Positions 893-62,074 of a stretch of DNA of 64,000 nucleotides are shown in pieces. The stretch is taken from assembly GCA_002509405.1 (NCBI GenBank), contig DAVO01000012.1:4009-68008 (forward strand), given 5' to 3'. The notes beneath the pieces are model-generated. The model was given only the letters and a program-made list of their open reading frames with translations. It ran no database searches and was not told where the DNA came from. The translations under genes and the position numbers were made by a program. The DNA is from Methanomassiliicoccaceae archaeon UBA72. GTDB taxonomy: Archaea > Thermoplasmatota > Thermoplasmata > Methanomassiliicoccales > Methanomethylophilaceae. The first letter of the stretch is position 1. Every line of letters begins with the position of its first letter.

Positions 893-893
<1 letters not shown>

Positions 894-1603
894 CAGTAGT
901 CTGCTCCGTTCTTTTTCTTGAACTCTTCCCATTTGCCGAGGACCTGGTCCCCGGTTATGAACTCGATGTTGTTCTCGTCCGCGAATCTTATGACGTCTTT
1001 TTTGGTCATCGAACTGCCGTCGTCACCCATCATCTCGCATATGGTGGCAGACGGATTTACACCGGCCATGTACATCATGGCGGTGCACAGTTCCGTGTGC
1101 CCCTTTCTGTTTGTAAGTATGTGCTCCGTGGCATTAAGCAAATGTACATGTCCCGGGGACCTGAACTCTTCCCCGATCTCCCTGGCTATTTCGGACGCGG
1201 GCTTGTCCTGGAACAGTACCTCCGCGAACCTTGAGATCGTGAGCGCCCGGTCCCTGTCGGTTATCCCCGTGTAGGTCTTCCGGTGGTTTATTGTAACACC
1301 GAAAGAAGATTTCGTGTTGTCGTACGGTATGTCGTTCGGGGCCATCGCCCTGAGCAGGGGGAATCTGTTCGAATCGTCGTAATAAACGTCGGCCATGTAG
1401 GGCAGGCCGATCTCCGTCGCCTTGTCGTAGGGAGTGGTGGTGCAGATCAGCCCTCCTGCCTTCTTCCTCATCATCTGCACAGCCTCGTACGTGATGTACT
1501 GCGAGGCGATCGTCATATCCGATTCGCCTTCCCTGTCGTCGAAATCGTAGACAAGTATGACCTTGCCCTGCCTAATGTCATTCAGGGCCTTTTTGAAGTT
1601 CAT
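893..1603 (-). CDS. ribB: 3,4-dihydroxy-2-butanone 4-phosphate synthase
   Basis: MNFKKALNDIRQGKVILVYDFDDREGESDMTIASQ...RSPGHVHLL...GHTEL is a clear RibB family match. I used the Met at 1603; the 131-codon upstream extension of ORF 893..1996 is low complexity and would cross the divergent promoter. Confidence 0.9.
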
Positions 1604-1717
1604 CAAATCACCAGGGGTCTGCCAAAGCGACTGTATAAAAAAACTGTTGGCAATGTACCAGCATTTTAGTAGACAGCAGACGACGTGTGCCACCGGTAGA
1701 AAAACGACGGAATAACA

Positions 1718-1725
1718 CTTTAAAT
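1718..1725 (+). promoter_or_regulatory. TATA-like box (TTTAAATA) upstream of the pgi/pmi start
   Basis: An AT-rich octamer lies 24 to 31 nt upstream of the ATG at 1749, inside the divergent ribB / pgi-pmi intergenic region. This spacing is typical of archaeal leaderless transcripts. Confidence 0.4.
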
Positions 1726-1748
1726 ATCTGCATCGGCTGGTACGAACG

Positions 1749-2768
1749 ATGTCCGATGGGAAGAATGTACAGGGTACGATGATCTTCAGGAACACCGCCA
1801 GTTTCCCGGAGCAGATAGAGGCGGCGCTGGAAGAAGAGATCCCCGCCATCCCGAAGGCCGGGAAGGTATGCATATGCGGCATGGGGGCATCCGCTCTCGC
1901 AGGCGAGATCCTCTCTGATTTTGCCGACGGTACATCTAAAACGCCGCTTTTCATAATCCGGAGGACCGAGTTCCCGAAGTGGGTGGGGGAGGACACTTGG
2001 ACGATACTCGTGAGCTACTCCGGAAACACCAAGGAAACGCTGATCGCCTACGATGAGGCGATACGCCGCAACTGCAAGGTCATATGCATCACGTCGGGAG
2101 GGGAGCTATACTCCAAATGCCTCAGCCGCAAGGACGTGGCCGTCACCCTGCCGGGAGGCATGCAGTCGCGTGTCGCCCTGGGCAGCATCATCGGTAGGAT
2201 GGCTTCGATACTGGAGGAGATGGGGGTGTGCGAGGCGAAGACCGAACTAAAGAAAATCGTCCCGGTGCTCAAGGCGGAGAGAGACAGGGTCGTAAAGGAC
2301 GACTGCAAGGTCGCAAGGGCGATCGCCGACAAGCTAATCGACAAGATCCCCGTGATCTACAGTCTCGCCAACATGCGCTCTTCCGCAATAAGGTGGAAGA
2401 CTCAGATAAATGAAAATTCCAAGAACATATCATTCTGCGGTTCCATTCCCGAGTTCAATCACAACGAGATAGTGGGCTGGACGGACGACGGGAACAACAA
2501 CCGTAATTTCGTCCCGGTCGTCCTTTACGACGACAACGCGTCGAAGATGATGAGAAGCATGACTGACACGTCCATAGGCATACTTGTGGACAAGAATCTC
2601 GAGACGATAACCCTTCACGTCGAGGGGACCGGAAATCTGGAGAAAAATCTCAAGTGCATAATCCTCGGAGACATCGTCTCGTTGTGTCTCGCGGACCTCC
2701 GCAGCACCGACCCGACCACCGAGAAGCCCCTCCGCGACGTCCGCGACCGGGCCGGCGTCCCGCTGTGA
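1749..2768 (+). CDS. Bifunctional phosphoglucose/phosphomannose isomerase (SIS domain)
   Basis: The N-terminal half is SIS-like (CICGMGASALAGEIL...VSYSGNTKETL...ITSGGEL) and the C-terminal half resembles the bifunctional archaeal PGI/PMI family. Confidence 0.75.
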   Translation: MSDGKNVQGTMIFRNTASFPEQIEAALEEEIPAIPKAGKVCICGMGASALAGEILSDFADGTSKTPLFIIRRTEFPKWVGEDTWTILVSYSGNTKETLIAYDEAIRRNCKVICITSGGELYSKCLSRKDVAVTLPGGMQSRVALGSIIGRMASILEEMGVCEAKTELKKIVPVLKAERDRVVKDDCKVARAIADKLIDKIPVIYSLANMRSSAIRWKTQINENSKNISFCGSIPEFNHNEIVGWTDDGNNNRNFVPVVLYDDNASKMMRSMTDTSIGILVDKNLETITLHVEGTGNLEKNLKCIILGDIVSLCLADLRSTDPTTEKPLRDVRDRAGVPL

Positions 2769-16121: not shown

Positions 16122-17426
16122 TCAGGGAGACAGTCTCGACACGTCTCTGGGGAAAAGGATCGCTTCCCTTATGTTGGGAAGGTCGAGCATTTTCACCAGC
16201 AGCCTTTCCGTTCCGATTCCCCATCCGCCGTGCGAAGGCATCCCGTATCTGAAAGCTTCGAGGTAGAATTCGAAATCCTTCGGGTCGAGTCCTTTCTTTT
16301 CCATCCTTTCGATCAAACGGTCGATACGATGCTCCCTCTGCCCGCCCGAAGAGATCTCCTGCCCTCTGTAGTCCAGATCGAAGGAGTATGAGTAGGAGGT
16401 CCCGTCTTTTTCCATGATGTAGAATGGTTTTGCATCCTCGGGATACTCGCAGATGAAATATAGGTCGAATCCCTTCGATGACATCCGGTCTCCGACGATC
16501 TTCTCCCCCTCGGTACCAAGGTCTTCTCCGTCTTTGATGTCGAGCCCGCCCTCGCGCACTATCTCGAGGCACTCCTCATAGGTAAGGCGGGGATACGGTA
16601 AAGCAGGTATGTTGATGTCCTTGCCGAGTGCCGCAAGCTGTTCAGCACCCCTGTCTTTAATGCCCCTCAGAACGAAATCCACGATATTCTCGATCATGGA
16701 CATGACGTCCTCCTCTGATGATATCCAGGACATCTCGCCGTCGAAAGATACGAATTCCGTCACGTGCCTGTTGGTGTTGGAGTTCTCGGCACGGAATGCG
16801 GGAGATATCTCGTAAACACGGTCGAGCCCTGTCGACATAAGGATCTGCTTGTATAGTTGCGGACTTTGCGCGAGATATGCCTCCCTTCCGAAATAATCGA
16901 CTTTGAAGAGGGTTGCGCCGCCCTCGGCCCCCGAGGAGTTGATCTTCGGGGTGGAGACCTGTACGAATCCATTCTCCCTGCACGCTTCTGCGATCAGCCC
17001 GAACATAAGCGACTTAAGTTCGAATATGGCCTTGATCTCAGGTTTGCGGAGGTCCATGAACCTGTGGTTCAGACGGGTATCCATTTCCACATTTACCTTG
17101 TCTACTACGCCCATGGGGAGAGGCACCGCGGCCTCGGACACGATCTATGCGGAAGTGGGTATTATCTCGAATCCAAGAGCGGTCTGGTTGCTCTCTTTCA
17201 CCTCGCCCGTCACCGAAACCGCCGACTCCCTGGAAAGTGTTGTCAGCATCTCAAAAAGCCCAGGTTCGATCTTTTTCTTGGGCATGGTCACCTGTACCGT
17301 GCCGAACCTGTCTCTGAGCGTCAGGAAGGATATGCCCCCCAGATTTCTTATGTCCTGTGCCCAGCCGTTGACGGTCACAGTACCGTCTCCAGCCTTGATG
17401 GTCTTAGTGTTCCTTATGAGGGTCAT
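16122..17426 (-). CDS. aspS: Aspartyl-tRNA synthetase interrupted by one in-frame TAG (17145..17147)
   Basis: ORF 17145..17426 encodes the OB-fold anticodon-binding domain (TVNGWAQDIRNLGGISFLTLRDRFGTVQV). ORF 16122..17141 encodes the class II catalytic core (FRAENSNTNRH...GGWGIGTERL). Both are in the same frame, separated only by TAG and ATC. Confidence 0.85.
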
Positions 17427-36571: not shown

Positions 36572-39460
36572 TTATAAAATCATCTGTACAGCCGATTCAA
36601 TTTCTTCTCTGGGTATTGGTTCGAATTCAACCCTTTCGCCTATCGATACGAAGTCGATGACACACCTCGCCGGCCTCTTGTAGTAGCCCTCCGCCGCAAG
36701 TGCGTAGACGCTCAGCTGAAGCATGTATGCGTCCATGTTGTTTTTTGACACGTCGGTCTTGTAGTCATGCACCTCTATACGGTCCGGATAAAGTGCCAGA
36801 AGGTCTATGTAACCGCTGAGGGAAACGCCAAGTCCGTTAAGGGGCAGCATGCAATGGACCTCTGCCAGTACGAGGTCGGCGTCGGCGACGGATGCAAGGA
36901 CCTCTTTCACGGCGGGGGTCTCGGGATATTTCTCCCTAGGCTCGATGCCCTTGGCCAGTCCCTCCGCGGCCGCATGGATCTTCTTCCCGTACTCGATCCC
37001 CTTCCCCGAAACCTCGTCGGCGCCCTCCTCCGGCGGACCGCCTTCAAAGACCATTATGTCATGGACCCCTATGACCTTGCGACGGGATTCGTACGGCGCA
37101 GGAACAGGCATAAGGATGTTCCTGTCCTTCTCAGCAAATGCGGGCGCAGGCAGGTCCCCTATGGTTCCCAGGTATTTGTCCCCAGACAGCCCCGAGATGA
37201 ATTTGGAGGGCTCGTCCCCGCAGATCATAGTGACGTATTGCTTCGCCCTCGAGATGGCCACGAAAAGGGTGCGGCGCTCTTCGCTGTAGTCTCTGTCTGC
37301 GGCGGTCCTTACCAGTAATGTCTTCCAAGAGCATCCCTTTCTGACGAAACCTCCGTCGGAAACCAGCTCCGTGGTGCATCTCACGCCCTCTGTCTCGTTG
37401 AAATATATCTCGTAATTGTCCTGCGTATAGTTGGGTATTATACGGTTATCCAGCCTGGGTATGATCACTATCGGGTATTCCAGCCCCTTGGATTTATGCA
37501 TGGTCTGGATCAAAACGGCGTCGGAGTTCAGGTCCGCATCTATGCTGTATTTGTTTTTCTCGGCGATGTCGCTCTCGATCATCCTTATCATGTCCGATAT
37601 GGTGATCAGGGAGGAACGGTGGGCGGACGAAAGCGTGGTGATGATCGCCTGCGTGACGTCGTTGTTGAGTCCGTAGTATGAAAAAACAGACGATATCAGA
37701 TTGGTCGGCCTGCGTTTCTTCCTTTCCAGGTCATCCCTCAGTTCCGCGACCTCCTTGGGTACATCCGCGAAGTTCCCCCGGTCGCCGCGGACTATCTTTC
37801 TGACGTCCTCCAGGCCATACTCCATATCGGAAAGGATCCCCACCAGTCCCCAGGGGTCTGTCCTGTTGTTTATGAATTTCAGCCATGCGAGCAGCAGCTT
37901 TCCCTCTCTTGTGGACATTATCTCCACGTCCCCCTGCAGGAAAGCATCCACTCCTCTCGCCCTAGCCTCATCGTAAACGGCGCGGCACATGCTGCTGTTT
38001 CTGCAGATCACAGCGATGTCGCCGTACCTGGGCCTTCTGGCCTCTGTGCCCTCGTGCACAACGTAGTCGCCCGTCACATATTCTATGATCCTGGAGACCG
38101 TCTCCTTCGCCTCTTCGGAAGTCGGCACTTTGACATATCTCACGTGGGTGTCGGTCCCGATGGTGTCGTCGCCCGACGTCAGTTTAGTCACGGTTTCCGG
38201 GTCGAGGGAGACGGTCTCGTCATTGGTCCCCGGCAGACTCAGAACTGCGAACGAGGCGTCGATGATCTCCTGGGAGCTGCGATAGTTCCTGTCCAGCGAG
38301 AGCCTTGTGACCGCAGGTATCCTGAAAGGGATGCGCTCGGTGTCGTCGTTGAGATAAGCGTGCATGGCCACCGCCCGCCGCTCGAAATCGATTATGTTGT
38401 CGATCGATACGAACCTGAACCCGTATATTCCCTGTTTCCAGTCGCCCACCACGCAGAGGTTGGGCTCCTTGAGCAGCATCAGGGCGATCATCATCTGATT
38501 CTCGTTGGTGTCCTGGAATTCGTCTATCATCACGTACCTGCAGGACATTCTTTCCCTGACCCCGGCGCTGACATAGAGGATGATGAATGCGAACACGGAG
38601 TTCAGGCCGTAGGTCAGACGGTCGTCCGCGACCGAACGGCGTATGTATTCGTAGTATACGTCGTGAACGAACCTCAGGAGTTCGGACCTGTCGTCTTCGG
38701 CCGCGGATCTGATTATTTCCGGAGTCACATCTTCTTCCGTAGAAAACAGCGGCATTTCGGGAGAGAAAATCGTCCCTTCCTTGATTTTTTTGGAGACCGC
38801 GTTTATCAGCTTTTTCTTCTTCCTGGCATCGAAGTTCAGCCGCTCGACGGAAGAGGCGTCTCTGCCGATATCTCCCTCGAGGTCCTCCCCCTCTCTTCCT
38901 CCGAACCATCCCTTGCTCAGAGGCACTATGCCTTTGGCCATCAGTTTGTTGATCAAAGCATACATATGGGAAGGCAGAGTGCTGGAGATGACCGCTATAT
39001 CTCCGTATTCGCTTCCGTGTTCCGCGTTGAAACGGTCGAAGAAGTTGCTGAAATACTCTCTGTTAAGCGTTTCGTTCTCCACAAGCGACGCGCTTCGGGT
39101 GAGCCCCTCGCCGAAACCGAGGAAGTCGCTCACGGATTCAGGGGATTCCTTCACTATAGAGTAGCAGAACGAGTCGAATGTTCCGGCCTGGATGAGCCTC
39201 GTGTCCTTTCCCGTCTCCGTTTTCGCGAGCCCTTCCCTTATGCGCTCCTCCATCTCCGTGGCCGCGTTCTTGGTGAACGTGAGAAGGAGAATGTCCTTCG
39301 TCTGAATCTCAGGCTTTTTCAAAATGTTGATGTACCTGCTCACGACGGTGAAAGTTTTGCCCGTGCCGGGCCCGGCGTCGACCACGTAGAAGCCGTCCAG
39401 CCCTTCGGCGATGGCCTTCTGGGAATCGTTAGGTTCTTTAGCCATCGTATTCCCCCTCAT
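36572..39460 (-). CDS. AddA-like UvrD/PcrA-family helicase with a C-terminal PD-(D/E)XK nuclease domain
   Basis: The helicase motifs are DAGPGTGKT, MIDEFQDTN and TMHKSKGLEYPIV. The C-terminal nuclease motif is GYIDLLALYPDRIEVHDYKTD. An alternative Met start is at 39445. Confidence 0.8.
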   Translation of the reverse strand: MRGNTMAKEPNDSQKAIAEGLDGFYVVDAGPGTGKTFTVVSRYINILKKPEIQTKDILLLTFTKNAATEMEERIREGLAKTETGKDTRLIQAGTFDSFCYSIVKESPESVSDFLGFGEGLTRSASLVENETLNREYFSNFFDRFNAEHGSEYGDIAVISSTLPSHMYALINKLMAKGIVPLSKGWFGGREGEDLEGDIGRDASSVERLNFDARKKKKLINAVSKKIKEGTIFSPEMPLFSTEEDVTPEIIRSAAEDDRSELLRFVHDVYYEYIRRSVADDRLTYGLNSVFAFIILYVSAGVRERMSCRYVMIDEFQDTNENQMMIALMLLKEPNLCVVGDWKQGIYGFRFVSIDNIIDFERRAVAMHAYLNDDTERIPFRIPAVTRLSLDRNYRSSQEIIDASFAVLSLPGTNDETVSLDPETVTKLTSGDDTIGTDTHVRYVKVPTSEEAKETVSRIIEYVTGDYVVHEGTEARRPRYGDIAVICRNSSMCRAVYDEARARGVDAFLQGDVEIMSTREGKLLLAWLKFINNRTDPWGLVGILSDMEYGLEDVRKIVRGDRGNFADVPKEVAELRDDLERKKRRPTNLISSVFSYYGLNNDVTQAIITTLSSAHRSSLITISDMIRMIESDIAEKNKYSIDADLNSDAVLIQTMHKSKGLEYPIVIIPRLDNRIIPNYTQDNYEIYFNETEGVRCTTELVSDGGFVRKGCSWKTLLVRTAADRDYSEERRTLFVAISRAKQYVTMICGDEPSKFISGLSGDKYLGTIGDLPAPAFAEKDRNILMPVPAPYESRRKVIGVHDIMVFEGGPPEEGADEVSGKGIEYGKKIHAAAEGLAKGIEPREKYPETPAVKEVLASVADADLVLAEVHCMLPLNGLGVSLSGYIDLLALYPDRIEVHDYKTDVSKNNMDAYMLQLSVYALAAEGYYKRPARCVIDFVSIGERVEFEPIPREEIESAVQMIL

Positions 39461-42182
39461 CTGTTACGGCGGCAGGTTCCCGTGTGCAGACCGAAAAGAA
39501 ACAGCATTTCGTGCAGTCTTTACGGGGTTTAGGTTCGAAACCAGATCCCATCTTTTTCGATGCGGCCGCATGGTCATCGTTCAGTTTCTCAAGGAAAAGG
39601 CCCATGGAGTCCGAAGGGATGAACACTTCCTCTTTCACGATCCAGTAGTCCTCCTTCAGATGTTTGCAGAGTTTCCTCAATGCTTTGGTCACATAATCTG
39701 TTTTCACCTTCCCCGGCTTCATTCCGAGGGAAGACAACACGGACGCGACGAGTGCAGCGTCTCCCTCCCAGTCCTCGGGTCGGAGTCCGGAGGATAGCAA
39801 AGGCGACACGAAAGAATCCCATTTCTCATACATAGGCAACAGGGATTTCGTACCGTCAAAGAGCTTTCTCAACTGTGAATTCGGGTCGGCCATAGCCTCT
39901 CTTTTTGTTTCTTTCATCAGATGCACATTGACCGAATTGTAACAGACGGTCTCGGTGTCTTTCACGCGTCCGTCGGTCCCGAAAACGTAGAAAAGGCTGA
40001 AAACCGGAGTTCCGCCGCCCAAGGCCTCCCTGGCCAAAGCCAGGTAGATCAGGGGTTGCGTTTCGATGTATTCTGCTTTCTTCGGGTCGAGATTTTTGGC
40101 AACGTCGGTCGCTGCGTGGAAACCGCCGGTCTTGTAGTCGATCAGACAACTCCCTATCGCCAGGTCGAACTTGCCGTATATCGGATATTCGGAGGAGTCC
40201 ATATCTCTCTCCGCGTGGCTGCTGCACATGGCAAGGCCCTCTGATTTCATGAGTTCGTTGGGATATACGCGCGAGGCGTTTTCCACATCCAGGGGGACGG
40301 GCTCTTTCCTGACGCGGTCGATGAAGGTCATCAGGTTCCTCAGGGCCACGCGTATGCGGTCCATGTCCAGCTTCTCCATGAGCGGGCAGGAGAGCCCGGC
40401 GTACGTCTTGCCTATGAGCTCTGCGTAGTGCTCGATGCCGTTTTTAGCGACATGTTTGGGATAGCAGACGTACAACTCGGCGAAAGCATGGATAAGGTGT
40501 CCGAAAGCCGTGTTTTCGTTGTCGGGCGCGGTCACAAGATTTCCGTAGTAGAACGCACGGGGACAGTCGCAGTAATTGTTGTAAGTGGATTTCGTGAACT
40601 TCCATTCGCGCTCCGTGTCCTTTCCGATGATCTCGGTCCCCCTCTCGGGGAACACTTCGGGCGTTTCCTTGTACCAGGATCCTTTCCTTACGGGCGCGAC
40701 ATCTTTGAAGTATGTCACATGGCGTCCTTCCCCTTCAAGCCCGCAGATGCCCTCGAACAGGAAGGTCGGACGGGCCTCTTTTCCCTTCCTCGTTGCGTTT
40801 ATGGCGTAGATGCGGGACGTCCCCTGTTGCAGGAGGACCCTGAACTTCATCGCGTCCTTCTCGGCTTCCGCTTCTCTGTCGATATACTGCCTTCCCACGA
40901 TCCTGTTGCCCCATTCCTCGCCCATACCGATGAATATGACGAAAGGACGGTCGACGAATACTGACCTGTGGCAGTCTGCCAGGAGAACGCCTCTTTTTTC
41001 GCTGTCCGGTATCTGCTCGTTGTGGTGCAGGTCGGATACGTTGTTCACGGCATAATTCATCTCTCCAACCAGCTGAGAGGTCACCTTCCTTCCGGCGAAG
41101 TTCAGCTCGTCGAGCAGCAGGTGGACCTGTGGGACGCTCTTTTTGTTCACCACGAGGTCGCAGACCTCAAGAAAGGTCATTTCCTTCAGGTTTTTCATGC
41201 ATTCAGCCAGTTCCAGCGCTCTCCCTCCGATGTCGGGAAGTCTGGACAGGAGGACGTTGTCGTACCTAGCCCCAACCGTGCCGCCGTAAGCCGAGAATAT
41301 CTCCCTCACGTGCCTGACCCTGACGGTGTCGTAAGACATCCCCAGGGTCAGGAAGCTGAGATAATCTCTGACCTGGGAGAGGTCGCGTACGGTCATCGTG
41401 TTCTTGAACGGTATTCCGCGCCTGTAGAGGGCGGCGCGTACCGCGTCAGCTATCCCGCTCTCCGTATCCATGACAATCGCCACGTCCGTGGCGCGTTCCG
41501 CATCTATGAGTTCGACCACGTTCTCGGCGATCTGCCTGTCGTTGCCTATTTCGTATATCTCTCCGATTTCGTAATTTTCGTCTTCGGCGACAACCTCTAT
41601 CTCATCGTGCCTGATGGGAATGAAATGTTTGTCGAGGTCGTCGAATAGCTCGACGCCTATCACAGCGGTTCTTCTGCCGGCGAACATGTTGTCAGAAATA
41701 ACGTAACCGGACCCTCGGCCCTCGTGGTACGTCTCCGGGACGAAGTCTCCCATGGCCTTTTCCACCGTCGGGAGGGCTCTGTACGAATCGTATACCCTCC
41801 TGGACCTGCGGGAGTACAGGAACTTCTCGACTTCCGACGTATATCTCCTGATGTTCCTGATGTTCTCGACCTCGGCGTGCACGAATTTGAATCCGTATCC
41901 GGTCTCGTCGGAGACCGCGGCGACGACCTCCAGGTCGCTCATCAACGGCAGGCCCAGAATCTGGATCGAAAGGTCGACGGCCAACTGCCGCGGGGTGTAA
42001 GCGAAGCCCCCGATCATCGGCCGGTCTATCCGCCCGTTCAGGGCGGTGGCGAGGGGGGCGTCGTTTGTTATTACGATATCGAAGTCTCTCGCTTCTGCGT
42101 AAATCTCGTCGATGCTCTTGGTCCTGTACATCCGACGCTGAATCGTCCGGAGGATAGTAATCCTTTCTATCGAATCCAGCAA
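39438..42182 (-). CDS. AddB-like subunit: degenerate helicase-like N-region plus a PD-(D/E)XK nuclease with an Fe-S staple cysteine pattern
   Basis: GKFDLAIGSCLIDYKTGG is the nuclease core. A Cys in YNNYCDCP combined with C-terminal CTKCCFFSVC (C-x2-C-x5-C) matches the AddB/Cas4 iron-staple arrangement. No intact Walker A is seen. The gene overlaps the addA-like start. Confidence 0.65.
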   Translation of the reverse strand: MLDSIERITILRTIQRRMYRTKSIDEIYAEARDFDIVITNDAPLATALNGRIDRPMIGGFAYTPRQLAVDLSIQILGLPLMSDLEVVAAVSDETGYGFKFVHAEVENIRNIRRYTSEVEKFLYSRRSRRVYDSYRALPTVEKAMGDFVPETYHEGRGSGYVISDNMFAGRRTAVIGVELFDDLDKHFIPIRHDEIEVVAEDENYEIGEIYEIGNDRQIAENVVELIDAERATDVAIVMDTESGIADAVRAALYRRGIPFKNTMTVRDLSQVRDYLSFLTLGMSYDTVRVRHVREIFSAYGGTVGARYDNVLLSRLPDIGGRALELAECMKNLKEMTFLEVCDLVVNKKSVPQVHLLLDELNFAGRKVTSQLVGEMNYAVNNVSDLHHNEQIPDSEKRGVLLADCHRSVFVDRPFVIFIGMGEEWGNRIVGRQYIDREAEAEKDAMKFRVLLQQGTSRIYAINATRKGKEARPTFLFEGICGLEGEGRHVTYFKDVAPVRKGSWYKETPEVFPERGTEIIGKDTEREWKFTKSTYNNYCDCPRAFYYGNLVTAPDNENTAFGHLIHAFAELYVCYPKHVAKNGIEHYAELIGKTYAGLSCPLMEKLDMDRIRVALRNLMTFIDRVRKEPVPLDVENASRVYPNELMKSEGLAMCSSHAERDMDSSEYPIYGKFDLAIGSCLIDYKTGGFHAATDVAKNLDPKKAEYIETQPLIYLALAREALGGGTPVFSLFYVFGTDGRVKDTETVCYNSVNVHLMKETKREAMADPNSQLRKLFDGTKSLLPMYEKWDSFVSPLLSSGLRPEDWEGDAALVASVLSSLGMKPGKVKTDYVTKALRKLCKHLKEDYWIVKEEVFIPSDSMGLFLEKLNDDHAAASKKMGSGFEPKPRKDCTKCCFFSVCTREPAAVTDEGEYDG

Positions 42183-45104: not shown

Positions 45105-45321
45105 GGGTATGAGTTTCGAAGAATGCATCACGGCACTCGAAGCGCTGGTGAAAGAGCTTGAAAGCGGAACTCTCGACCTGGACAAGAGCCTCGAGATATA
45201 CGAGCGCGCCACCGTCATGAGGGACCGGTGCAAAAAGATACTTGAAGAGAGCGAGCGCCGGGTCCAGAAGATCACAGAGAGCTCGGAAGGTATCAAAAGG
45301 TCAGACCTTAAGATTGAGTGA
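45088..45321 (+). CDS. xseB: Exodeoxyribonuclease VII small subunit
   Basis: FEECITALEALVKELESGTLDLDKSLEIYERA is the XseB helical hairpin. The gene overlaps the end of xseA. Confidence 0.8.
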   Translation: MNEDIEGMSFEECITALEALVKELESGTLDLDKSLEIYERATVMRDRCKKILEESERRVQKITESSEGIKRSDLKIE

Positions 45322-46167
45322 CCAAAGTCTGAAGCACTGCTTCCTGGCCCATCCGTCCGTTTGGGAGTAGAGGTCCGTGCCGTGGAAGTACAGGTCGCTG
45401 AAGGCCAGTCTCAGGGAGCCGGAGAGCTCTCCCTCGCGCAGATTCTTGCTGTTGAAGGACCCGAATATGAACTTCAGTCCTATCAGGAGCACCTCCACCG
45501 CGTCGTGGCCCCTGGCGAAGTCGATGGGGTCGTATCCTTCAGACATCTCCTCGTTCAGGCGGCGCAGGAGTTCGTTCCTGCTTACGCCCACGTTCATCGA
45601 AGCGCTGATCACCTCGTTCACAAGCTGCTTTACGTCGGTCTGAAGAGTCTTGCGGTCGATGAACCTTTCAAAGTCCAGGTTTCTGAAGGAAAGGTTGATT
45701 TTCAGTTTTTCCGAGATGTACATCAGGAGGCCGACAGGATAACACGCAGACACTATGGCATCGAAAACGGGCCCATATTTTCTTTCGAATCCCTCAAGTT
45801 CGCCGGCATCGGCATATTCGCACAGAATGTCGTCCAGGGCCGGGCTTCCGATCATCATCATCTCCAGGTCCCTGCGGTCGGTCAGGAATAAGGGCGGGGC
45901 GCGTTTCTTTCCAGTTATCCTGTCAAGGTCGGAATCCACGATGCCGACGACGGACACGAGGCCTCGTCTGCTCCAGCACTCGTCCACGGATTTTCGGACG
46001 TTGTCTTTGGAATGGCCTATGACTATCTTCACATGCTCCTTGTCGCTGAACTTGCCGTAAAGCCTGCCGTCGGTGATCCCTTCGACCACGAGCACCGTGT
46101 CCTCGACCGAAGACATCAGCATCGTTATCTCATTCGCAATGTCTGCCGGCGTCAGTGTTTCCCGCAT
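45301..46167 (-). CDS. DUF4435/Toprim (OLD-like) nuclease domain protein, AriB-like
   Basis: TVLVVEGITDGRLYGKF contains the Toprim Glu and VGIVDSDLDRI contains DxD. The size (about 270 to 288 aa) and position directly downstream of, and overlapping, an ABC ATPase also fit. Alternative starts are at 46122 and 46116. Confidence 0.65.
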   Translation of the reverse strand: MRETLTPADIANEITMLMSSVEDTVLVVEGITDGRLYGKFSDKEHVKIVIGHSKDNVRKSVDECWSRRGLVSVVGIVDSDLDRITGKKRAPPLFLTDRRDLEMMMIGSPALDDILCEYADAGELEGFERKYGPVFDAIVSACYPVGLLMYISEKLKINLSFRNLDFERFIDRKTLQTDVKQLVNEVISASMNVGVSRNELLRRLNEEMSEGYDPIDFARGHDAVEVLLIGLKFIFGSFNSKNLREGELSGSLRLAFSDLYFHGTDLYSQTDGWARKQCFRLWSLNLKV

Positions 46168-47203
46168 TGTTAGCTTTCAGCTCCCTTGCCATATCCCATT
46201 TGTCATGGATTATCTGAGGCGAATGGGTCGCTATTATGAACTGAAGGTCCCTGAGCCTTGCCAGATCCACGAGTATCCCCCCGAGCTTCTGCTGCCACTC
46301 CACATGCAGGGAGTTCTCTGGCTCGTCCAGCACCACCAGCGAACCCTGTTCCGTCTGGAAAAGCAGACGGTACATGATGACCATGATCTGTTTCTCTCCC
46401 GAGGAAAGCGAGATGAGCGGAAGCTCCTTGCCGCTGTTGAGTCTGACCGTCAGGTTGTCTTTCTCGTTTATCTCTATATTCTTTTTGATCAGAAGTTCGT
46501 TGACGATGTCCTTGAAGACGACGATCGACTCTGCCAGCTGGTAGAACTTCCTGATATAGTCGTTCAGGCCGAAAGCCAGGTCCTGGTAGTCCTTCCTCTT
46601 CTTCGTGCTCAGGTCATGGCGCTCCGGCGGGAAGCGGAGACCGGAGGGCATCTCGGGCTCCAGCCCTGCTCCCTTCATGAAATCCAATTTGGCCTTGAGG
46701 TCCTTGAAAAGTAACACGAACTCCCCGTCGGAAAGGTCAGGGCGCCGGGAATCTTCGGGCTGCAACAGGGAGCCGTTGTCCTTTGCGTATCTGATGCGGT
46801 CTCTCATCTCGGCCGCGTAGACCGATATGGCCGGGACGTAATGGCCGTCCTTCTTCCTTACTATCTGCCTCTCCGGAGAGATATATGTCACCTGGAACAT
46901 CCTGCGGAGCTCCGACTCGTCGACCGGTTGCTCGAGCTCGTTCTTCTGCACCAGTACGTTCGTGCCGTTGTGGTTCTCGACGATGAGGGTCATATCGCTG
47001 GAGAAGTTGACGTCCATCCTCTCGAAAGGCATGGACGAGAGCACATCGAACTCCCCCTTCAGGAGGGCTACTACGGCCCGCATGATGATGGATTTGCCGA
47101 ATCCGTTGCTGGAATAGATGAAGGTTACAGGTCCCTGGTTCAGACTGACGCTGCTGTCGCATTCGTCGAAGAGCCCATAAATGGTAATCGTTCTGATCTT
47201 CAT
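46130..47203 (-). CDS. SMC/ABC-type ATPase (AAA_15/AAA_21-like), AriA-like
   Basis: Walker A is SSNGFGKS, the signature motif is LSSGEKQ, Walker B is LVVLDEPENSLH and the H-loop is ATHSPQ. A TATA-like CTTAAAATATGC lies about 25 nt upstream on the minus strand. Confidence 0.7.
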   Translation of the reverse strand: MKIRTITIYGLFDECDSSVSLNQGPVTFIYSSNGFGKSIIMRAVVALLKGEFDVLSSMPFERMDVNFSSDMTLIVENHNGTNVLVQKNELEQPVDESELRRMFQVTYISPERQIVRKKDGHYVPAISVYAAEMRDRIRYAKDNGSLLQPEDSRRPDLSDGEFVLLFKDLKAKLDFMKGAGLEPEMPSGLRFPPERHDLSTKKRKDYQDLAFGLNDYIRKFYQLAESIVVFKDIVNELLIKKNIEINEKDNLTVRLNSGKELPLISLSSGEKQIMVIMYRLLFQTEQGSLVVLDEPENSLHVEWQQKLGGILVDLARLRDLQFIIATHSPQIIHDKWDMARELKANNAGNTDAGRHCE

Positions 47204-49712: not shown

Positions 49713-51062
49713 TCACAACCCCGGCAAATTCTTTCCAAGCAGCTTTTTCACCGCAGACATTTTTGACATGTAGGCATATATCAACACCCTGTCCCCGTCC
49801 CTGAAGTTGGTGTCGTACTTAGGGTATATCACCCTGCCGTTGCGGACCACTGCGGCAAAACGGACCCCGTCCGGAATATCCAGGTCCCCGTACAAACGGT
49901 TGAAAAGGGGAGACCTCTCATCGATCTTCACGCTGAAGAAGAACTCGCTGTCGTGCTTCATCTTCAATATCGAGTCCTCATCCGATATCAGGCCCTTGGT
50001 GATCTCGTTGGCTATTATGAGGTGGTATCCAATTATCGTCTCTATTCCCGTGAAGCGGAATATATCGTTATACTCCCTTGTGAGATATCTGGAAATGACC
50101 TTCCTGGTACCGAACTTAAGGGAAGCCATGCAGGCTAGGAGGTTCTTCTCGTCCGCTTCGGTGACGCTTATTAGGACGTCCGCCCTTCCCACGTTCTCGG
50201 TCTTGAGGATGTGCGGGTCCAGAGAATCCGAGTTAACAACGATGGCATCCGTAAGGGTGCGGGCGGCCTCCCTGCAAAGGTCCTTGTCCTCTTCGATGAT
50301 CTTGACGTAGACTTTCTTGTCCATTTTGCTGAGGGCCTTGGCGACGTTCATTCCGACCACCCCAGCTCCCAGGATCACAAATTCCAGGGCCTCGTCCTCG
50401 ATGCCTATCATCTTGTTGAAGGCCTCGATCCCCTTTTCGCTGCCGATGACGGTGATCCTGTCCTCCGGGCGGACCTCGGCCGTTTCCACGTCGATAATGA
50501 CTCCGTCCCCGCGGTATATGCATACGATGTTGCACTCCTCAGGTATGTCCAGGTTCAATATCACGTTGCCCACTATGCCCTGGTCGCCGCCGACCCTGAA
50601 GGTCGCAATAGCCAGCCCCAGAGATTTGATCGTTTCGTAATCTACCACGTTCTCGAGCGTGGCCAGCTTGAATATCTTGTTCGAGCTGATGATCTCCGGA
50701 GAAATGATCATGTCCACGCCGGGGTCCCCCTCTCCGGTTGTCTTGATCAGGTAGTCCGGGTTCTTGATGGTGGCCACCGTGCGCAACGAAGGCTTGTATT
50801 TTTTGGAAACCATGCATATGAAAAGGTTCAGCCCGTCGGATGGAAGCGTAGATACGATTATGTCCGCATCGTGCTTGCCGATCGCCAGCTCCAGTATCTT
50901 GGGGTTGGTCCCGTCCTCGTGGAGAACCGAGACATTGAGCAGATTCTTCACGGTGTCGGCCTTTATCGCGTCCTTCTCGATCATCATCACGTTGTGGACG
51001 GCTGATAGGGTCTCTGCGGAAGTATATCCGACGTTTCCCGCGCCGATAATGATAATGTTCAT
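49713..51062 (-). CDS. trkA: TrkA potassium uptake protein with tandem RCK/NAD-binding domains
   Basis: MNIIIIGAGNVGY and a second ILGAGVVGMNVA Rossmann motif are each followed by an RCK_C-like segment. Confidence 0.88.
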   Translation of the reverse strand: MNIIIIGAGNVGYTSAETLSAVHNVMMIEKDAIKADTVKNLLNVSVLHEDGTNPKILELAIGKHDADIIVSTLPSDGLNLFICMVSKKYKPSLRTVATIKNPDYLIKTTGEGDPGVDMIISPEIISSNKIFKLATLENVVDYETIKSLGLAIATFRVGGDQGIVGNVILNLDIPEECNIVCIYRGDGVIIDVETAEVRPEDRITVIGSEKGIEAFNKMIGIEDEALEFVILGAGVVGMNVAKALSKMDKKVYVKIIEEDKDLCREAARTLTDAIVVNSDSLDPHILKTENVGRADVLISVTEADEKNLLACMASLKFGTRKVISRYLTREYNDIFRFTGIETIIGYHLIIANEITKGLISDEDSILKMKHDSEFFFSVKIDERSPLFNRLYGDLDIPDGVRFAAVVRNGRVIYPKYDTNFRDGDRVLIYAYMSKMSAVKKLLGKNLPGL

Positions 51063-51244
51063 CTGAGTTCCGTCCTGAGATGTTCGGTCCCGTTATATCG
51101 GTTGTGCTTGTAAGTTTCATCTGGAACTTAAGGCCGACGTCCCTTCAATCCTGATGGGGATGTAAATGCTTTTCGTATTCGCCCGGCTTCCCAAAGCGTG
51201 GAATCTCCGAGATAAGGCCGATTCCTAATATGAAACGTATCGCG

Positions 51245-51254
51245 TAATATAAAT
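51245..51254 (+). promoter_or_regulatory. TATA-like box TAATATAAAT upstream of hisD
   Basis: It is centred about 28 nt upstream of the ATG at 51278. Confidence 0.4.
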
Positions 51255-51277
51255 CACGGGACTATGATTCGGGCGCC

Positions 51278-52534
51278 ATGTGGAAGCAAGTAAGCGAGGA
51301 TTTCTGGAAGGAGAACCGCGCGTCCAAGGTCGGAGACGTCTCGGATGCCGTGAGCGGCATCATCGGCGAGGTGCGTGCCGGCGGTGACAAGGCGCTGTTC
51401 GAGCTTACCAAGAGATTCGACAGACAGGAACTCGGGCGTCTGGAGGTAACACGCGAAGAGATCGAAGACGCATACGATTCCGTAGACCAAGAGATAGTCG
51501 AAGAGCTGGAGAACGCGGCATACAACATCGAGCGCTTCCATGAGATGCAGGTCCCTCCAGATATGTGGCTCAGGGAGGTGGAGCCCGGCATTACGTTGGG
51601 TGTCAAGAGCACACCTCTTGAAAGGGTCGGATGCTATGTCCCGGGGGGGAGAGCGTCATATCCCAGCACAGCTCTGATGTGCATCATCCCGGCGAGGGTC
51701 GCGGGCGTAGGCGAGATTATCTGCTGTACTCCCGCCCCGGTGAACCCGGCGACGCTGGTAGCGATGGACATCGCGGGAGCGGACGAGATATTCAAGCTGG
51801 GCGGCGCGCAGGCCGTGGCGGCGATGGCGCTTGGTACCGGCAGCGTCCCAAAGGTCCAGAAGATAGTCGGCCCCGGAAACGTGTATGTCACGGCAGCAAA
51901 GATGATGCTCCGCAACGAGGTGGAGATAGACTTCCCGGCAGGACCCAGCGAGATAGGGGTGCTTGCCGATTCGGGCGCGGTATGTGAATATCTGGCTGCG
52001 GACCTCATAGCTCAGGCGGAGCACGACCCGTCATCGGCAAGCCTGCTGATAACGGACGACCCGGAGCTTCCCGGCCTCGTTTGGGAGGCTATGGAGCAAA
52101 TGATCGACGACCAGCCCAGGAAGAGCATCATACTGAAGGCCCTGGAGAACTCAGGTTACATCGTTGCAGAGGATATGGACGAGGCGGTCGAGATGATGAA
52201 CCGCATCGCCCCGGAGCACCTGTCCATACAGACCTCCGACCCGATGGCAACCCTTTCGAAGGTCAGGAACGCAGGTTCGATATTCGTAGGCCCCTATACC
52301 CCGGTTGCCGCAGGCGACTATGCGTCGGGGACCAACCACGTGCTTCCCACGGCCGGGAATTCATCAACGGCTTCCGGCCTGAACGTGGCACACTTCCGTA
52401 AGACGTCCACCGTGCAGTTGCTCACCTGCGAGGGCCTGGAGGCCCTTGCGCCGACCATAGAGACTTTGTCCACATCGGAAGGCCTTCACGCCCACTGCGA
52501 TTCGGTGAGGGTCCGCTTCGACGATGCGGAGTGA
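51278..52534 (+). CDS. hisD: Histidinol dehydrogenase
   Basis: VGCYVPGGRASYPSTALM...GPGNVYVTAAK...AQAEHD...AGDYASGTNHVLPT shows the HisD motifs. Confidence 0.92.
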   Translation: MWKQVSEDFWKENRASKVGDVSDAVSGIIGEVRAGGDKALFELTKRFDRQELGRLEVTREEIEDAYDSVDQEIVEELENAAYNIERFHEMQVPPDMWLREVEPGITLGVKSTPLERVGCYVPGGRASYPSTALMCIIPARVAGVGEIICCTPAPVNPATLVAMDIAGADEIFKLGGAQAVAAMALGTGSVPKVQKIVGPGNVYVTAAKMMLRNEVEIDFPAGPSEIGVLADSGAVCEYLAADLIAQAEHDPSSASLLITDDPELPGLVWEAMEQMIDDQPRKSIILKALENSGYIVAEDMDEAVEMMNRIAPEHLSIQTSDPMATLSKVRNAGSIFVGPYTPVAAGDYASGTNHVLPTAGNSSTASGLNVAHFRKTSTVQLLTCEGLEALAPTIETLSTSEGLHAHCDSVRVRFDDAE

Positions 52535-54608
52535 GATGATGGACCACTTAGACCTCTACGACCCCAACCTCTACATCAACAGGGAGCTCTCATGGCTCGA
52601 GTTCAACAGGAGATGCCTCGACGAGGCCAACGACAAGGGGGCCCCCCTGCTCGAACGCCTGAAGTTCCTTGCCATATGCTACGGGAACCTCGACGAGTTC
52701 TTCATGATCCGCGTCCCCGGCATAGTCAACGGGATAGTGGCAGGTGCACCGATACTTGATGCCCCGGACATAGAGCATGACACAAACCGTCTGCTTTCCA
52801 AGATCAATTCCAAGGTGGAGGGCCTGCTAGAGGGGTACAACGCATGCTGGTTGGAGCTCAGGTCGGTCCTTTCGGAGAACGGGATAAGGATTCTGTCCAT
52901 AGACGACCTCTCCGACGAGCAGATGGAGGCGGTGGATTCCTTCTACAACGACCGCATCCATCCTCTCCTGACGCCTCTCGCGCTGGACGTATCGCATCCG
53001 TTCCCTTTCATCTCGAGCAACACCCTCAGCCTTGCGGTGAAGATGGAGGGGCCCAGGGGCCAGGTAATGTATGCCAGGATCAAGATGCCCCTCGGACCCT
53101 TCAACCGCTTCGTGCGGATACCATCCGAATCCTCCGGCTTCGACTATGTCCTCCTGGAGGATATGGTGCGCCACAACGTGCAGAAGCTTTTCCCCGGTTT
53201 CAAGATCAACGGGGTATACGCCTTCAGGGTCACCAGGAATGCTGATACCAAGGTGACGATCGACGAGGCCTGCGACCTCATGTCTGCCGTCGAGGAGTCC
53301 ATCGAAGGCAGGGGCACCGGTTTCCCGGTCAGGATGGTCACAGAGTCTGCCATGCCCCAGGACATGGTGGAGCTTTTCGGCAAGAATCTGGACCTCGGGA
53401 CGGAGCAGATACACAGGTCGGATTCGCCGTTGATGCTCAACAGCCTCTGGGAGCTCTACGACCTCAACCTGCCCCGTCTCAAGGAGAAGGAATTCAGGCC
53501 CTACTGCCCGCAGGAGCTGGCAGAGGGGTCGTCGATCTTCGAGGCCGTAGCAAAGAGGGACTGGGTGCTCTACCACCCGTACGAATCCTTCGGGATAATA
53601 GTGAGGTTCCTGCAGGAAGCGGCCCACGACCCTGCGGTCCAGAGCATCAAGATATGTCTTTACAGGATAGGCAAGGACCCCTCCATAATCCAGGCGCTTA
53701 GGGATGCCAGGGAGAAAGGTAAGACGGTATCGGTCCTGATGGAGATAAGGGCGAAATTCGACGAGACCAACAATATACAGCTCGCGAAAAGCATGGAACA
53801 GCTCGGCATACATGTGGTCTTCGGGCCCCTGGAGCTAAAGGTCCATTCCAAGCTCCTGCAGGTGGTGCGCCTCGAGGGAGGCCATCTTGTCAGGTACACC
53901 CATATGAGCTCCGGCAACTACAACGTAAGCACCGCCAAGCAGTATGCCGACATCTCGTTCCTGACGGTGAACGAGGAGATAGGAGAGGACGTGGGCGAAC
54001 TTTTCAACTCCCTCACCGGCTACTTCGGACCCAGGGAATACAAGCAGCTGCTGGTGTCGCCTCTGAACCTGAAGGACTCGCTCATCGAAAAGATAAGACG
54101 CGAGATCGAACGCAAGGAGGAGACCGGCAGCGGATACATCGCGCTCAAGGCCAACGGCCTCATAGACGCGGACATCATTGCAAGCCTGTACAGCGCGTCC
54201 ATCGCGGGCGTGAAGATAGAATTGAACATCAGGGGGCTGTGCTGCCTCCGTCCCGGGATACCAGGAGTATCCGACAACATACGCGTGATAAGGGTGGTGG
54301 ACAGGTTCCTGGAGCATGCGCGCATCTACTACTTCGAGAACGGGGGCGACCCGGAGATGTACATGGGTTCTTCGGACATAATGCCGAGAAACCTCCTCGC
54401 AAGGGTCGAGACGCTGTTCCCGATACTCGACAAGGAGATGCTGGTCTCCATCAGGGACAACATCCTTCGCGTGCACCTTGCCGACAACGTGAAGGCCAGC
54501 GAGCTGACCTCCGACGGGACGTATGTCCCGGTGGCAAGGAAGAAGAAGGAGCCGGCAGTCAGGTCGCAGAAATGGTTCATTGACCACAGAGGGTGCTGGC
54601 ATGGCTGA
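52524..54608 (+). CDS. ppk: Polyphosphate kinase 1
   Basis: YINRELSWLEFNRRCLDEA...LERLKFLAICYGNLDEFFMIRV and the HSK motifs (KVHSKLL) match PPK1. The gene overlaps the end of hisD. An alternative ATG is at 52536. Confidence 0.92.
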   Translation: MRSEMMDHLDLYDPNLYINRELSWLEFNRRCLDEANDKGAPLLERLKFLAICYGNLDEFFMIRVPGIVNGIVAGAPILDAPDIEHDTNRLLSKINSKVEGLLEGYNACWLELRSVLSENGIRILSIDDLSDEQMEAVDSFYNDRIHPLLTPLALDVSHPFPFISSNTLSLAVKMEGPRGQVMYARIKMPLGPFNRFVRIPSESSGFDYVLLEDMVRHNVQKLFPGFKINGVYAFRVTRNADTKVTIDEACDLMSAVEESIEGRGTGFPVRMVTESAMPQDMVELFGKNLDLGTEQIHRSDSPLMLNSLWELYDLNLPRLKEKEFRPYCPQELAEGSSIFEAVAKRDWVLYHPYESFGIIVRFLQEAAHDPAVQSIKICLYRIGKDPSIIQALRDAREKGKTVSVLMEIRAKFDETNNIQLAKSMEQLGIHVVFGPLELKVHSKLLQVVRLEGGHLVRYTHMSSGNYNVSTAKQYADISFLTVNEEIGEDVGELFNSLTGYFGPREYKQLLVSPLNLKDSLIEKIRREIERKEETGSGYIALKANGLIDADIIASLYSASIAGVKIELNIRGLCCLRPGIPGVSDNIRVIRVVDRFLEHARIYYFENGGDPEMYMGSSDIMPRNLLARVETLFPILDKEMLVSIRDNILRVHLADNVKASELTSDGTYVPVARKKKEPAVRSQKWFIDHRGCWHG

Positions 54609-56136
54609 AAGCAGGACCGTCGCCTTCATAGACGTGGGTACCAACTCGATCCATGTGCTGGTGACCCAGTTCTTCCCGGACTCGGTGGGCACTCCGATAT
54701 TCGACGACAAGGAGTCCGTGAGGCTTGGCCAGAACCTCTTCGCCGAGGGATACATCGACCAAGAGACCATCCAGAGGACGAAACTTGTCATAGGGCGTTT
54801 CGTCAGGATAGCCAAGGACATGGGCGCGGACGAGATATTCGCCTTCGCCACATGCGCCGCACGCGAGGCCTACAACAGGAACGAGCTGCTGGACGCGGCT
54901 TCTGAAGCGGGAATAGATCTGAGGATAATATCCGGCACCGAGGAGGCCAGGCTGGCGGGGCTCGGCGTGTTCGGGCCTTACGGGCCCCCGGACAGGTGCG
55001 TCGACATCGATCTCGGAGGGGGAAGCACCGAGATAAATCTCTGCAAAGGCAGCGAGACCATATTCTTGGACAGCCTCATGGCCGGTTCGGTGCGTTTCTC
55101 CTACGGGCTGGGCATAGACCAGCGCGGGACGGTGTCCCGTGCCGACTACGAAAAGATGCTCCGTGCGGTGGACAAGGTGGCAGATAATGCGGCCAACAGG
55201 CTCAGGGAGATCGGATTCGACAGGGCGATGGGGTCATCGGGCACCATGATAAATCTGGCCGAGATGTGCGCCGCCCGCAGGGACGGCGACGCTTCGTATA
55301 TGACGAAAAAAGAGCTTTCGGAGCTGATGAGGGACCTTTGCGCCATGGACGAAGTCCAGCGCCGCAGCGTGCCCAGGATGAACCCCGGAAGGTCGGACAT
55401 AATCATCGGAGGAGGGGCCGTAGCAGAGGAGCTGATGCACCTTTTCGAGATAGACAAGATATTCATCAGCGAACGCGGGCTGAGAGAAGGGATGCAGTTC
55501 GACTATCTCCTGGGAAAAGGCAGGAAGGAGTTCAATCTCAGGCGATCCTCTGTGATGACACTCGCCAGACGCTGCGGTTTCAACGAGAAGCACGCATCGC
55601 AGGTCAACATGCTCACGATGCGTATGTTCGACAGCATGAAGGACCTCGGCCTGCACGCGATGAACGGCGACGTCAGGGAACTGCTGGGATATGCGGCGAC
55701 GCTCCATGATATAGGGGAGTTCATCAGCTACAACAAGCACAATGTCCACTCCTACACGATAATATTGAATTCGAACATGCCCGGTTTCACCCCGACGGAA
55801 CTGGAGGACATGGCGCTGATCGCAAAGTTCCACCACAAACGGTTCCCCGGGTCGAACCACAAGCTCCTCAAGACGTTTACCAGACAACGGGCCAAGACCG
55901 TCCGCTACTGCGCCATGATGCTCCGCATGGCCGACGTTCTGGACAGGCACAGGTCCTCGCCGGTGGACAGCATGCGCGTCCTCGCGGTCGGAGGCAGCGT
56001 GCTCATAGATCTGAAGTCCAAGGAGGACCTGAGCATGGAGGTCTGGAAGCTGGAAGAGCTATCCGAACCGTTCAGAGAAGTATTCGGGTCAGAGCTTAGG
56101 ATATGCGCATCCGGGTGGGGCGAAGCGAAGATATAG
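54601..56136 (+). CDS. ppx: Exopolyphosphatase (Ppx/GppA) with a C-terminal HD domain; the only gene here ending in TAG
   Basis: VAFIDVGTNSIHVLV...IDLGGGSTEI is the ASKHA fold and LHDIGEFISYNKH is the HD region. I used the ATG at 54601, which overlaps the ppk stop. Confidence 0.85.
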   Translation: MAESRTVAFIDVGTNSIHVLVTQFFPDSVGTPIFDDKESVRLGQNLFAEGYIDQETIQRTKLVIGRFVRIAKDMGADEIFAFATCAAREAYNRNELLDAASEAGIDLRIISGTEEARLAGLGVFGPYGPPDRCVDIDLGGGSTEINLCKGSETIFLDSLMAGSVRFSYGLGIDQRGTVSRADYEKMLRAVDKVADNAANRLREIGFDRAMGSSGTMINLAEMCAARRDGDASYMTKKELSELMRDLCAMDEVQRRSVPRMNPGRSDIIIGGGAVAEELMHLFEIDKIFISERGLREGMQFDYLLGKGRKEFNLRRSSVMTLARRCGFNEKHASQVNMLTMRMFDSMKDLGLHAMNGDVRELLGYAATLHDIGEFISYNKHNVHSYTIILNSNMPGFTPTELEDMALIAKFHHKRFPGSNHKLLKTFTRQRAKTVRYCAMMLRMADVLDRHRSSPVDSMRVLAVGGSVLIDLKSKEDLSMEVWKLEELSEPFREVFGSELRICASGWGEAKI

Positions 56137-62065: not shown

Positions 62066-62074
62066 AACCATTAA

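Follow-up and report, generated by a model that had tools for sequence, protein, structure and literature searches.

The 64,000-nucleotide stretch of contig DAVO01000012.1 analysed here (the window), which is assigned to Methanomassiliicoccaceae archaeon UBA72, contains a gene for aspartyl-tRNA synthetase (AspRS), aspS, whose reading frame is interrupted by one TAG at codon 94. The best explanation, to which we assign a probability of roughly 85%, is that UAG94 is decoded as pyrrolysine (Pyl), so that a full-length AspRS of 434 amino acids with Pyl at position 94 would be produced. An AspRS of this type is normally the sole route to Asp-tRNA, in this group probably to Asn-tRNA as well, and is expected to be strictly essential.

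The gene is located on the minus strand and runs from an ATG at 17426 to a TGA at 16124..16122 (435 codons including the stop; Table 1). The TAG (17147..17145 in the direction of reading) is the sole internal stop in this frame, and there is no frameshift. An earlier examination of the window from its letters and open reading frames (ORFs), hereafter the sequence-only reading, had described an in-frame TAG within an otherwise intact aspS of about 434 codons, with two ORFs in one frame separated by TAG and ATC. This description holds in all respects: the ORFs at 17145..17426 (93 aa) and 16122..17141 (339 aa counted from a GTG) share the frame, the complete gene has 434 codons followed by TGA, and the junction in the read-through reads ...ALGFEIIPTSA-TAG-IVSEAAVPLPMGVVDK.... 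The length, which had been judged typical of archaeal AspRS, is likewise corroborated by the colinearity of the read-through product with the experimentally determined structure of Thermococcus kodakarensis AspRS (3nel/1b8a; E = 5.6e-145, query residues 16-434 corresponding to 18-438 of the chain). This alignment is gapless near the TAG and places codon 94 opposite V96; bacterial AspRS structures align with the window protein merely in two separate stretches. By these comparisons, the window aspS encodes an archaeal/eukaryal-type class IIb AspRS without the bacterial insertion domain.

Both expected domains are recognized in the product, namely the OB anticodon-binding domain (PF01336, residues 17-93, E = 6.6e-14, 52 bits against a cut-off of 27) and the class II D/K/N core (PF00152, residues 115-428, E = 9.3e-84, 281.5 bits against a cut-off of 25), and the motif 2 region SPAFRAE and the motif 3 region GGWGIGTER are invariant in the AspRS alignment A1. 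The closest protein matches are AspRS of 434 aa from Methanomethylophilaceae, with 76-96% identity on both sides of the TAG; several sources label close homologues as aspartate--tRNA(Asn) ligase or nondiscriminating aspartyl-tRNA synthetase. The codon-usage coding score is 0.43 bits per codon before the TAG and 0.40 after it. Scanning directly for ORFs joined by a TAG gave too much noise, and codon-usage scoring was used instead; by this scoring, aspS alone among the window genes has an internal TAG flanked by strongly coding sequence on both sides. On this sequence evidence, the two ORFs are one gene with one stop and not a chance juxtaposition.

The TAG in aspS is real. The exact 93-aa N-terminal fragment ending at the TAG is found on contigs of four separately assembled runs, SRR10812145 to SRR10812148. 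Three of these contigs match the window at 100% identity; the fourth, a 19.7-kb contig from SRR10812148, matches it at 99.93%, with 11 single-nucleotide differences over 15.3 kb, none of them within aspS; this contig is therefore an independent consensus and not a copy of the window assembly. Among the compared loci, TAG is present in the window and in L001-L003, and GAG in L005-L007. The C-terminal part, called as a 330-aa ORF (P0277), is recorded from NCBI and Logan on four contigs, the longest of 71,275 bp. Consensus sequences of metagenome-assembled genomes (MAGs) can contain errors, and a sequencing or assembly error had been listed among the alternatives by the sequence-only reading; the same TAG in four independent Logan assemblies, one of them with 11 other differences from the window, leaves an artefact with a vanishingly small probability and eliminates that alternative.

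The closest genome in GTDB is Methanomassiliicoccaceae archaeon UBA370, with 95.6% DNA identity over 7.3 kb. Its aspS is intact and reads GCA-GAG-ATC-GTG vs GCA-TAG-ATC-GTG in the window. Glutamate is found at position 94 in every other full-length member of the 90% AspRS cluster to which the window protein belongs, including P0273, which is present on 27 contigs. An aspS scan of 80 GTDB species representatives, which retained one aspS locus per species, found all of them intact, with no in-frame stop anywhere in the gene; the column of codon 94 is occupied by E48 D6 V5 T4 I4 K4 R3 L2 N1 Q1. The comparison of orthologues that had been suggested as a check thus gave a sense codon throughout, mostly for Glu. 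As judged from these alignments, the TAG arose by one G-to-T transversion (GAG to TAG) in a variable column, later than the divergence from UBA370 (about 96% identity), and is young and unique to one strain lineage.

The selection regime of aspS also appears to be that of a functional gene. The ratio of non-synonymous to synonymous substitution rates (dN/dS) is 0.037 against the relative at 91% identity and 0.046 against the one at 87%, and both halves behave alike (0.02-0.05 for codons 1-93 against relatives and 0.04 for codons 95-434). None of the signs of a pseudogene (dN/dS near 1, a frameshift or a second stop) was found in aspS, both halves being in the range of 0.02-0.05. When the 47 aspS differences between the window and UBA370 were polarised using three outgroups, 24 synonymous and two non-synonymous changes, E94 to TAG and the conservative I140L, were assigned to the branch that leads from the UBA370 split to the window. 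Neutral decay is expected to give about three non-synonymous changes per synonymous one; these branch counts cannot date the TAG within the branch. By the substitution pattern, aspS is under strong purifying selection and shows no decay. Together with the glutamate codon of the closest relatives, this agrees with the earlier proposal that the TAG replaces a sense position rather than marking decay.

These data bear directly on the possibility of a fresh pseudogene, in which the TAG has inactivated aspS and the cell relies on a second AspRS copy or on a partner organism. The mutation is indeed young, the sister at 95.6% identity having GAG, so that there was possibly too little time for secondary damage. 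This explanation is nevertheless very unlikely, considering the 24 to 2 ratio of synonymous to non-synonymous changes on the window branch, the lack of a frameshift or a second stop, the intact state of the one aspS locus retained by the scan for each of the 80 species, and the position of AspRS as the normally sole source of Asp-tRNA.

Stop codon usage in the window is strongly skewed. Among 54 genes called after training on codon usage, 43 end with TGA, 10 with TAA and one with TAG, and the trinucleotides TAG and TAA are about equally common in the whole window (348 vs 405). The median share of TAG among stops is 4.1% in Pyl-encoding Methanomethylophilaceae vs 22% in archaea that lack Pyl (PMC12626013); at a rate of 0.22, the probability of one TAG or fewer among 54 terminators is 2.4e-5. 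The window genes are depleted of TAG terminators, as the sequence-only reading had noticed. A greedy longest-ORF gene list showed three TAG terminators, two of which proved to be shadow ORFs opposite real genes.

The only gene with a TAG terminator is the ppx/GppA-HD gene, where the TAG is followed by a short in-frame extension (Table 1). The Pfam Ppx-GppA and HD domains were found in the sister loci of this gene. The TAG and the extension are kept in nine sister-lineage loci, both substitutions inside the extension are synonymous, and the loci diverge, with an indel, directly past the TGA. This conservation is a small hint that the nine codons are translated, possibly as a tail that contains Pyl. 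Read-through of this TAG stops at the TGA at 56164..56166, short of the next gene at 56299, and creates no large overlap. Within the window, the values for the TAG-rarity criterion (TAG in no more than 5% of terminators and no Category 4 overlap) are one of 54 terminators and no such overlap.

The genes of the Pyl system, pylT (tRNA(Pyl)), pylS (pyrrolysyl-tRNA synthetase, PylRS) and pylBCD, are present in all three nearest lineages, at about 96%, 91% and 87% identity. In the lineage at 87% (GCA_002506995.1), pylT, pylS (P0247), pylB, pylC and pylD occupy 162-179 kb of DAYT01000001.1, in a cluster that also holds a RACo-type activase, corrinoid proteins, and one mttB and two mtmB genes split at TAG. 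An intact aspS lies on this 844-kb contig as well, at about 49 kb; by synteny with this lineage, the pyl cluster of the window strain would be expected about 100 kb beyond the window start, which is consistent with its absence from the window. In the UBA370-like lineage at about 96%, PylRS P0267 and the same cluster are found at 601-620 kb of JGI Ga0134849_000002 (681,739 bp), and the pyl cluster likewise on SAHD_10000055 (231,096 bp). Both contigs also contain the thermosome region, 96.1% identical to window positions 50438..64000, and their sizes are those of the longest records bearing the intact AspRS P0273 and P0275. In two of the three lineages, those at 87% and about 96%, the pyl cluster shares its contig with an intact aspS. 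In GCA_036677565.1, the thermosome region and the pyl cluster are both present, on separate contigs. In the lineage at about 91%, AspRS P0276 is paired with PylRS P0268; their NCBI accessions are near each other (MGE0015103 and MGE0014624), and the two proteins probably come from one MAG. A complete pylTSBCD cluster is found on the record with PylRS P0270, which is near-identical to P0268.

The pylT of this clade is GGGGGACGGTCCGGCGACCAGCTGGCCTCTAGAGCYTCGCTAGCGGGGATCGACACCCCGGTCTCTCGCCA, with the anticodon loop CUCUAGA (anticodon CUA), and precedes pylS by 21 nt; we take it to resemble the tRNA(Pyl) of M. alvus. A metagenome scan based on pylT yielded eight contigs, none of which is from the strain of the window. 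Several PylRS candidates were likewise assigned elsewhere: P0157 and P0179 belong to human-gut and other species, and P0249, P0234 and P0270 to other members of the clade. We infer from the gene content of its three nearest lineages that the window strain has the Pyl machinery too. Pyl decoding, which the sequence-only reading had treated as a serious possibility, thus gains support from these pyl clusters and from the rarity of TAG terminators. The alternative of a very recent nonsense mutation fared differently in its two parts: the mutation is recent, but it is no competitor to Pyl decoding, since the two are complementary.

Some additional features of the pyl loci were noticed. In two relatives, the 71-nt pylT (7909..7979 in L117 and 8909..8979 in L147) does not adopt a cloverleaf in its minimum free energy fold. 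Gene callers give pylB just 215-263 aa (at 9826..10890 in L146 and 8826..9890 in L117), and its true start may be a non-canonical codon or may be coupled to pylS. An in-frame TAG suspected in pylB is not present, the frame being open from the pylS stop onward, and one suspected in 254-aa PylRS variants was also dismissed, the short calls being due to a V21M substitution. The region from pylS to RACo in L116-L125 (the pyl/mt cluster, about 9.3 kb) is 99.7-100% identical across nine contigs from different samples, and the gene content upstream of it varies (an extra mttB copy, or an amino-acid permease vs an EamA transporter). This identity reflects either a very widespread digester species or an unusually conserved cluster.

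A split enzyme was the other alternative raised by the sequence-only reading, with reinitiation at the GTG at 17141. Translation would stop at the UAG and restart at this GTG or at the ATG of codon 105, and the OB domain and the catalytic core would act as cooperating polypeptides. Naturally split aminoacyl-tRNA synthetases exist, the GTG is 3 nt from the stop, and gene callers start the 330-aa ORF at the codon-105 ATG. Moreover, a derived synonymous change at codon 100 on the window branch creates GGTG 9 nt upstream of this ATG, and about 40% of the window genes carry a Shine-Dalgarno-like 4-mer in the same position range. Such a 4-nt motif is, however, near chance level, and the GTG and the ATG are ancestral sense codons that are present in relatives with an intact aspS. 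No split AspRS is found among the 80 species. If the strain has tRNA(Pyl), like its three nearest lineages, translation would pass the UAG in at least some cases, and a split would be unneeded. Reinitiation is thus poorly supported, and a split AspRS seems highly improbable.

Under Pyl decoding, the history of this gene would be as follows. The host, a methylotrophic methanogen, is a member of the family Methanomethylophilaceae (order Methanomassiliicoccales), a group that appears to possess the UAG-reading tRNA(Pyl), PylRS and PylBCD and to have nearly abandoned TAG as a gene terminator. In one strain lineage, a single G-to-T change converted codon 94 of aspS from GAG (Glu) to TAG. Ribosomes would put Pyl at UAG94, the residue that we infer from the codon and the pyl genes of the relatives, and continue, so that the peptide around the site would be ESNQTALGFEIIPTSA-O-IVSEAAVPLPMGVVDK and the read-through would add 340 residues to give the 434-residue AspRS. 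The bulky lysine derivative would probably be tolerated because the site of residue 94, in the final beta-strand of the OB domain and just ahead of the hinge, is variable. In an AlphaFold model of the 96% identical relative P0001, which served only for placing residue 94 in a strand, this residue is in the last OB strand (86-98), before the linker, with a local pLDDT of about 75-90. The substitution is most likely neutral or nearly so. If UAG decoding is ambiguous, some 93-residue N-terminal OB fragment would also be released; as a side effect, an essential gene would now depend on the Pyl machinery. A PYLIS-type stem-loop does not stand out in the 120 nt from the UAG, which fold at -35.1 kcal/mol vs a shuffle mean of -34.4 (z = -0.19); a downstream stem-loop is not needed for Pyl insertion.

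Several observations weigh against Pyl decoding in aspS. The 64-kb window contains no pyl gene, tRNA, Rfam family or methylamine methyltransferase; as far as the tRNA is concerned, neither ARAGORN nor the Rfam tRNA model recognizes the pylT of this clade, even in loci that clearly contain it, so that this negative scan is uninformative on tRNA(Pyl) in these genomes. The Methanomethylophilaceae include genomes without Pyl (PMC12626013), and membership of the family alone is therefore no guarantee of the Pyl machinery. The structure model of P0001 is moderate overall, with a mean pLDDT of 67. Methanosarcina acetivorans reads UAG both as Pyl and as stop (PMC12626013), so that the yield of full-length AspRS could fall and the allele could be mildly harmful. 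Finally, the TAG-bearing assemblies are from four runs with consecutive accessions, possibly one study, and from one MAG, so the allele may be confined to one local population; a literature search for SRR10812145-8 found no paper.

The last two points are central to an alternative in which the TAG is a leaky, mildly harmful nonsense allele: ambiguous reading of UAG as Pyl or stop would cut the yield of AspRS, and the allele would be a transient hitch-hiker in a local clone. This fits the narrow set of sources, the glutamate on at least 27 contigs of the widespread sister lineage, and the ambiguous decoding demonstrated in M. acetivorans. Nevertheless, TAG is the assembled consensus in all four runs, and Pyl insertion is consistent in M. 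alvi of the same family. A leaky allele is unlikely; it also needs Pyl read-through and departs from the preferred explanation, Pyl at codon 94 of a functional AspRS, in fitness effect only. It is similarly doubtful, on the sequence data, that TAG94 is non-neutral in another way, by tying the supply of a core translation enzyme to Pyl-tRNA(Pyl), with the 93-aa OB fragment possibly having a tRNA-binding role of its own; the gene would then be a snapshot of the irreversibility step of Kivenson et al. (bioRxiv 10.1101/2024.09.30.615893).

Table 1. Coordinates of aspS, its parts and the only TAG-terminated gene end in the window
Feature	Position	Strand	Evidence
aspS, archaeal-type class II AspRS, 434 codons and TGA when read through one internal TAG	16122..17426	-	Frame, Pfam, colinearity with 3nel/1b8a, homologues
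In-frame TAG (codon 94), formerly GAG (Glu) and proposed to encode pyrrolysine (UAG)	17145..17147	-	Comparison with relatives
Codons 1-93, preceding the TAG, with the OB-fold anticodon-binding domain	17148..17426	-	PF01336, coding score, dN/dS
Codons 95-434, comprising the last part of the OB strand, the hinge and the class II catalytic core	16125..17144	-	PF00152, coding score, dN/dS
Sole TAG 'terminator' (ppx/GppA-HD gene 54601..56136) and nine in-frame codons (VPRQERPVR), then TGA	56134..56166	+	Gene calls, sister loci

The remainder of the window (55.5% G+C overall) is an otherwise ordinary chromosome. It encodes metabolic enzymes, including FBPase, TIM, NadA, adenylosuccinate synthase, SHMT, cobyric-acid synthase, polyphosphate kinase and Ppx, as well as a class I tRNA synthetase of the Glu/Gln type (PF00749), FeoB, a P-type ATPase, Rad50/Mre11-like proteins and a thermosome. 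Adjacent genes on the minus strand at 36572..42182 encode a UvrD-helicase with a PD-(D/E)XK nuclease (962 aa) and a PD-(D/E)XK protein (914 aa), a pair that looks AddAB-like and seems unusual for an archaeon. At 45301..47203, on the same strand, a gene for a DUF4435 protein overlaps one for an AAA_21/AAA_15 ATPase; this pair resembles a defence module of two genes. Right after the thermosome gene, at 62303..63932 on the plus strand, there is a tandem of two serine recombinase genes (Resolvase and Recombinase domains). In the sister loci, the recombinase pair is followed by variable hypothetical genes and may mark the edge of an integrated element. In the gene at 893..1996 (minus strand), the DHBP-synthase domain begins at residue 136, and the first approximately 135 codons overlap a PGI-like gene at 1749..2768; considering this overlap, the real start is probably downstream. 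A 915-aa gene in L011 that seemed broken was found to be intact.

The aspS gene appears to provide a dated natural case of UAG entering an essential translation gene, with a sister at about 96% identity that keeps GAG. Events of this kind have been proposed to make Pyl decoding obligatory and TAG reassignment one-way. There is also a practical side: standard gene callers split aspS into pieces of 93 aa and 330 aa, which would depress completeness estimates and wrongly flag a pseudogene. Codon 94 is, in addition, a candidate surface-tolerant site for a bulky lysine derivative in a class II synthetase. No new mechanism is revealed, recoding being already known in this archaeal family; the aspS case is new.

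The closest parallel is found in the work of Kivenson et al. (bioRxiv 10.1101/2024.09.30.615893), where proteomics of Methanomethylophilus alvi showed Pyl inserted at TAG genome-wide. Aminoacyl-tRNA synthetases are among the Pyl proteins reported there, and the HisRS of M. burtonii was confirmed by mass spectrometry; most Category 1 cases are singletons of one lineage (one genome or genus) and probably neutral, and the authors propose that the new code becomes fixed once essential genes depend on Pyl. The main text does not name AspRS, and the UBA370/UBA421-related lineage goes unmentioned in the study. Category 1 comprises genes with an in-frame TAG, either side of which is above 30% identity to known proteins, and with a read-through extension longer than 15 aa; aspS has 76-96% identity on both sides and a read-through of 340 residues. 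By its sequence, the aspS TAG matches the 'internal TAG' Category 1 class of Genetic Code 34. As in other Category 1 genes, the TAG interrupts a conserved gene that encodes no methyltransferase, homology extends to both sides of it, and it is limited to a single lineage; as in their hosts, the lineage is that of a low-TAG, Pyl-encoding methanogen, from the family that contains Methanomethylophilus. Unlike the cases confirmed by mass spectrometry, Pyl in aspS is predicted from sequence, and the mutation can be placed later than the split of two lineages with about 96% identity.

A second parallel is the tRNA(His) guanylyltransferase (Thg1) of M. acetivorans, in which Heinemann et al. in 2009 reportedly found Pyl and described its 'appearance by neutral evolution'. 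In Thg1, the UAG is said to occupy a non-conserved position and to require no special mRNA signal for decoding as Pyl, which is dispensable for catalysis. Like Thg1, aspS is a housekeeping gene for a tRNA-related enzyme, with a single UAG where relatives have ordinary residues. Pyl in Thg1 was shown experimentally, whereas it is deduced in aspS, which encodes another enzyme in another archaeal order, and AspRS, unlike Thg1, is expected to be strictly essential. For RdmS of M. acetivorans, Shalvarjian et al. 2025 (PMC12626013) described a long and a short form that result from an internal UAG. The similarity with aspS consists in a UAG without a known targeting signal in a non-methyltransferase gene, with read-through and truncated forms predicted for aspS; in contrast to aspS, which is essential and located in a window where one of 54 terminators is TAG, RdmS is non-essential and M. 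acetivorans still stops at TAG.

The methylamine methyltransferase genes mtmB, mtbB and mttB are decoded with the same tRNA(Pyl)/PylRS machinery, and TAG-split calls of mtmB and mttB adjoin the pyl cluster in the sister lineages. In these enzymes, Pyl has a catalytic role at a site conserved in both archaea and bacteria; the site in aspS, by contrast, is variable and has TAG in one strain lineage.

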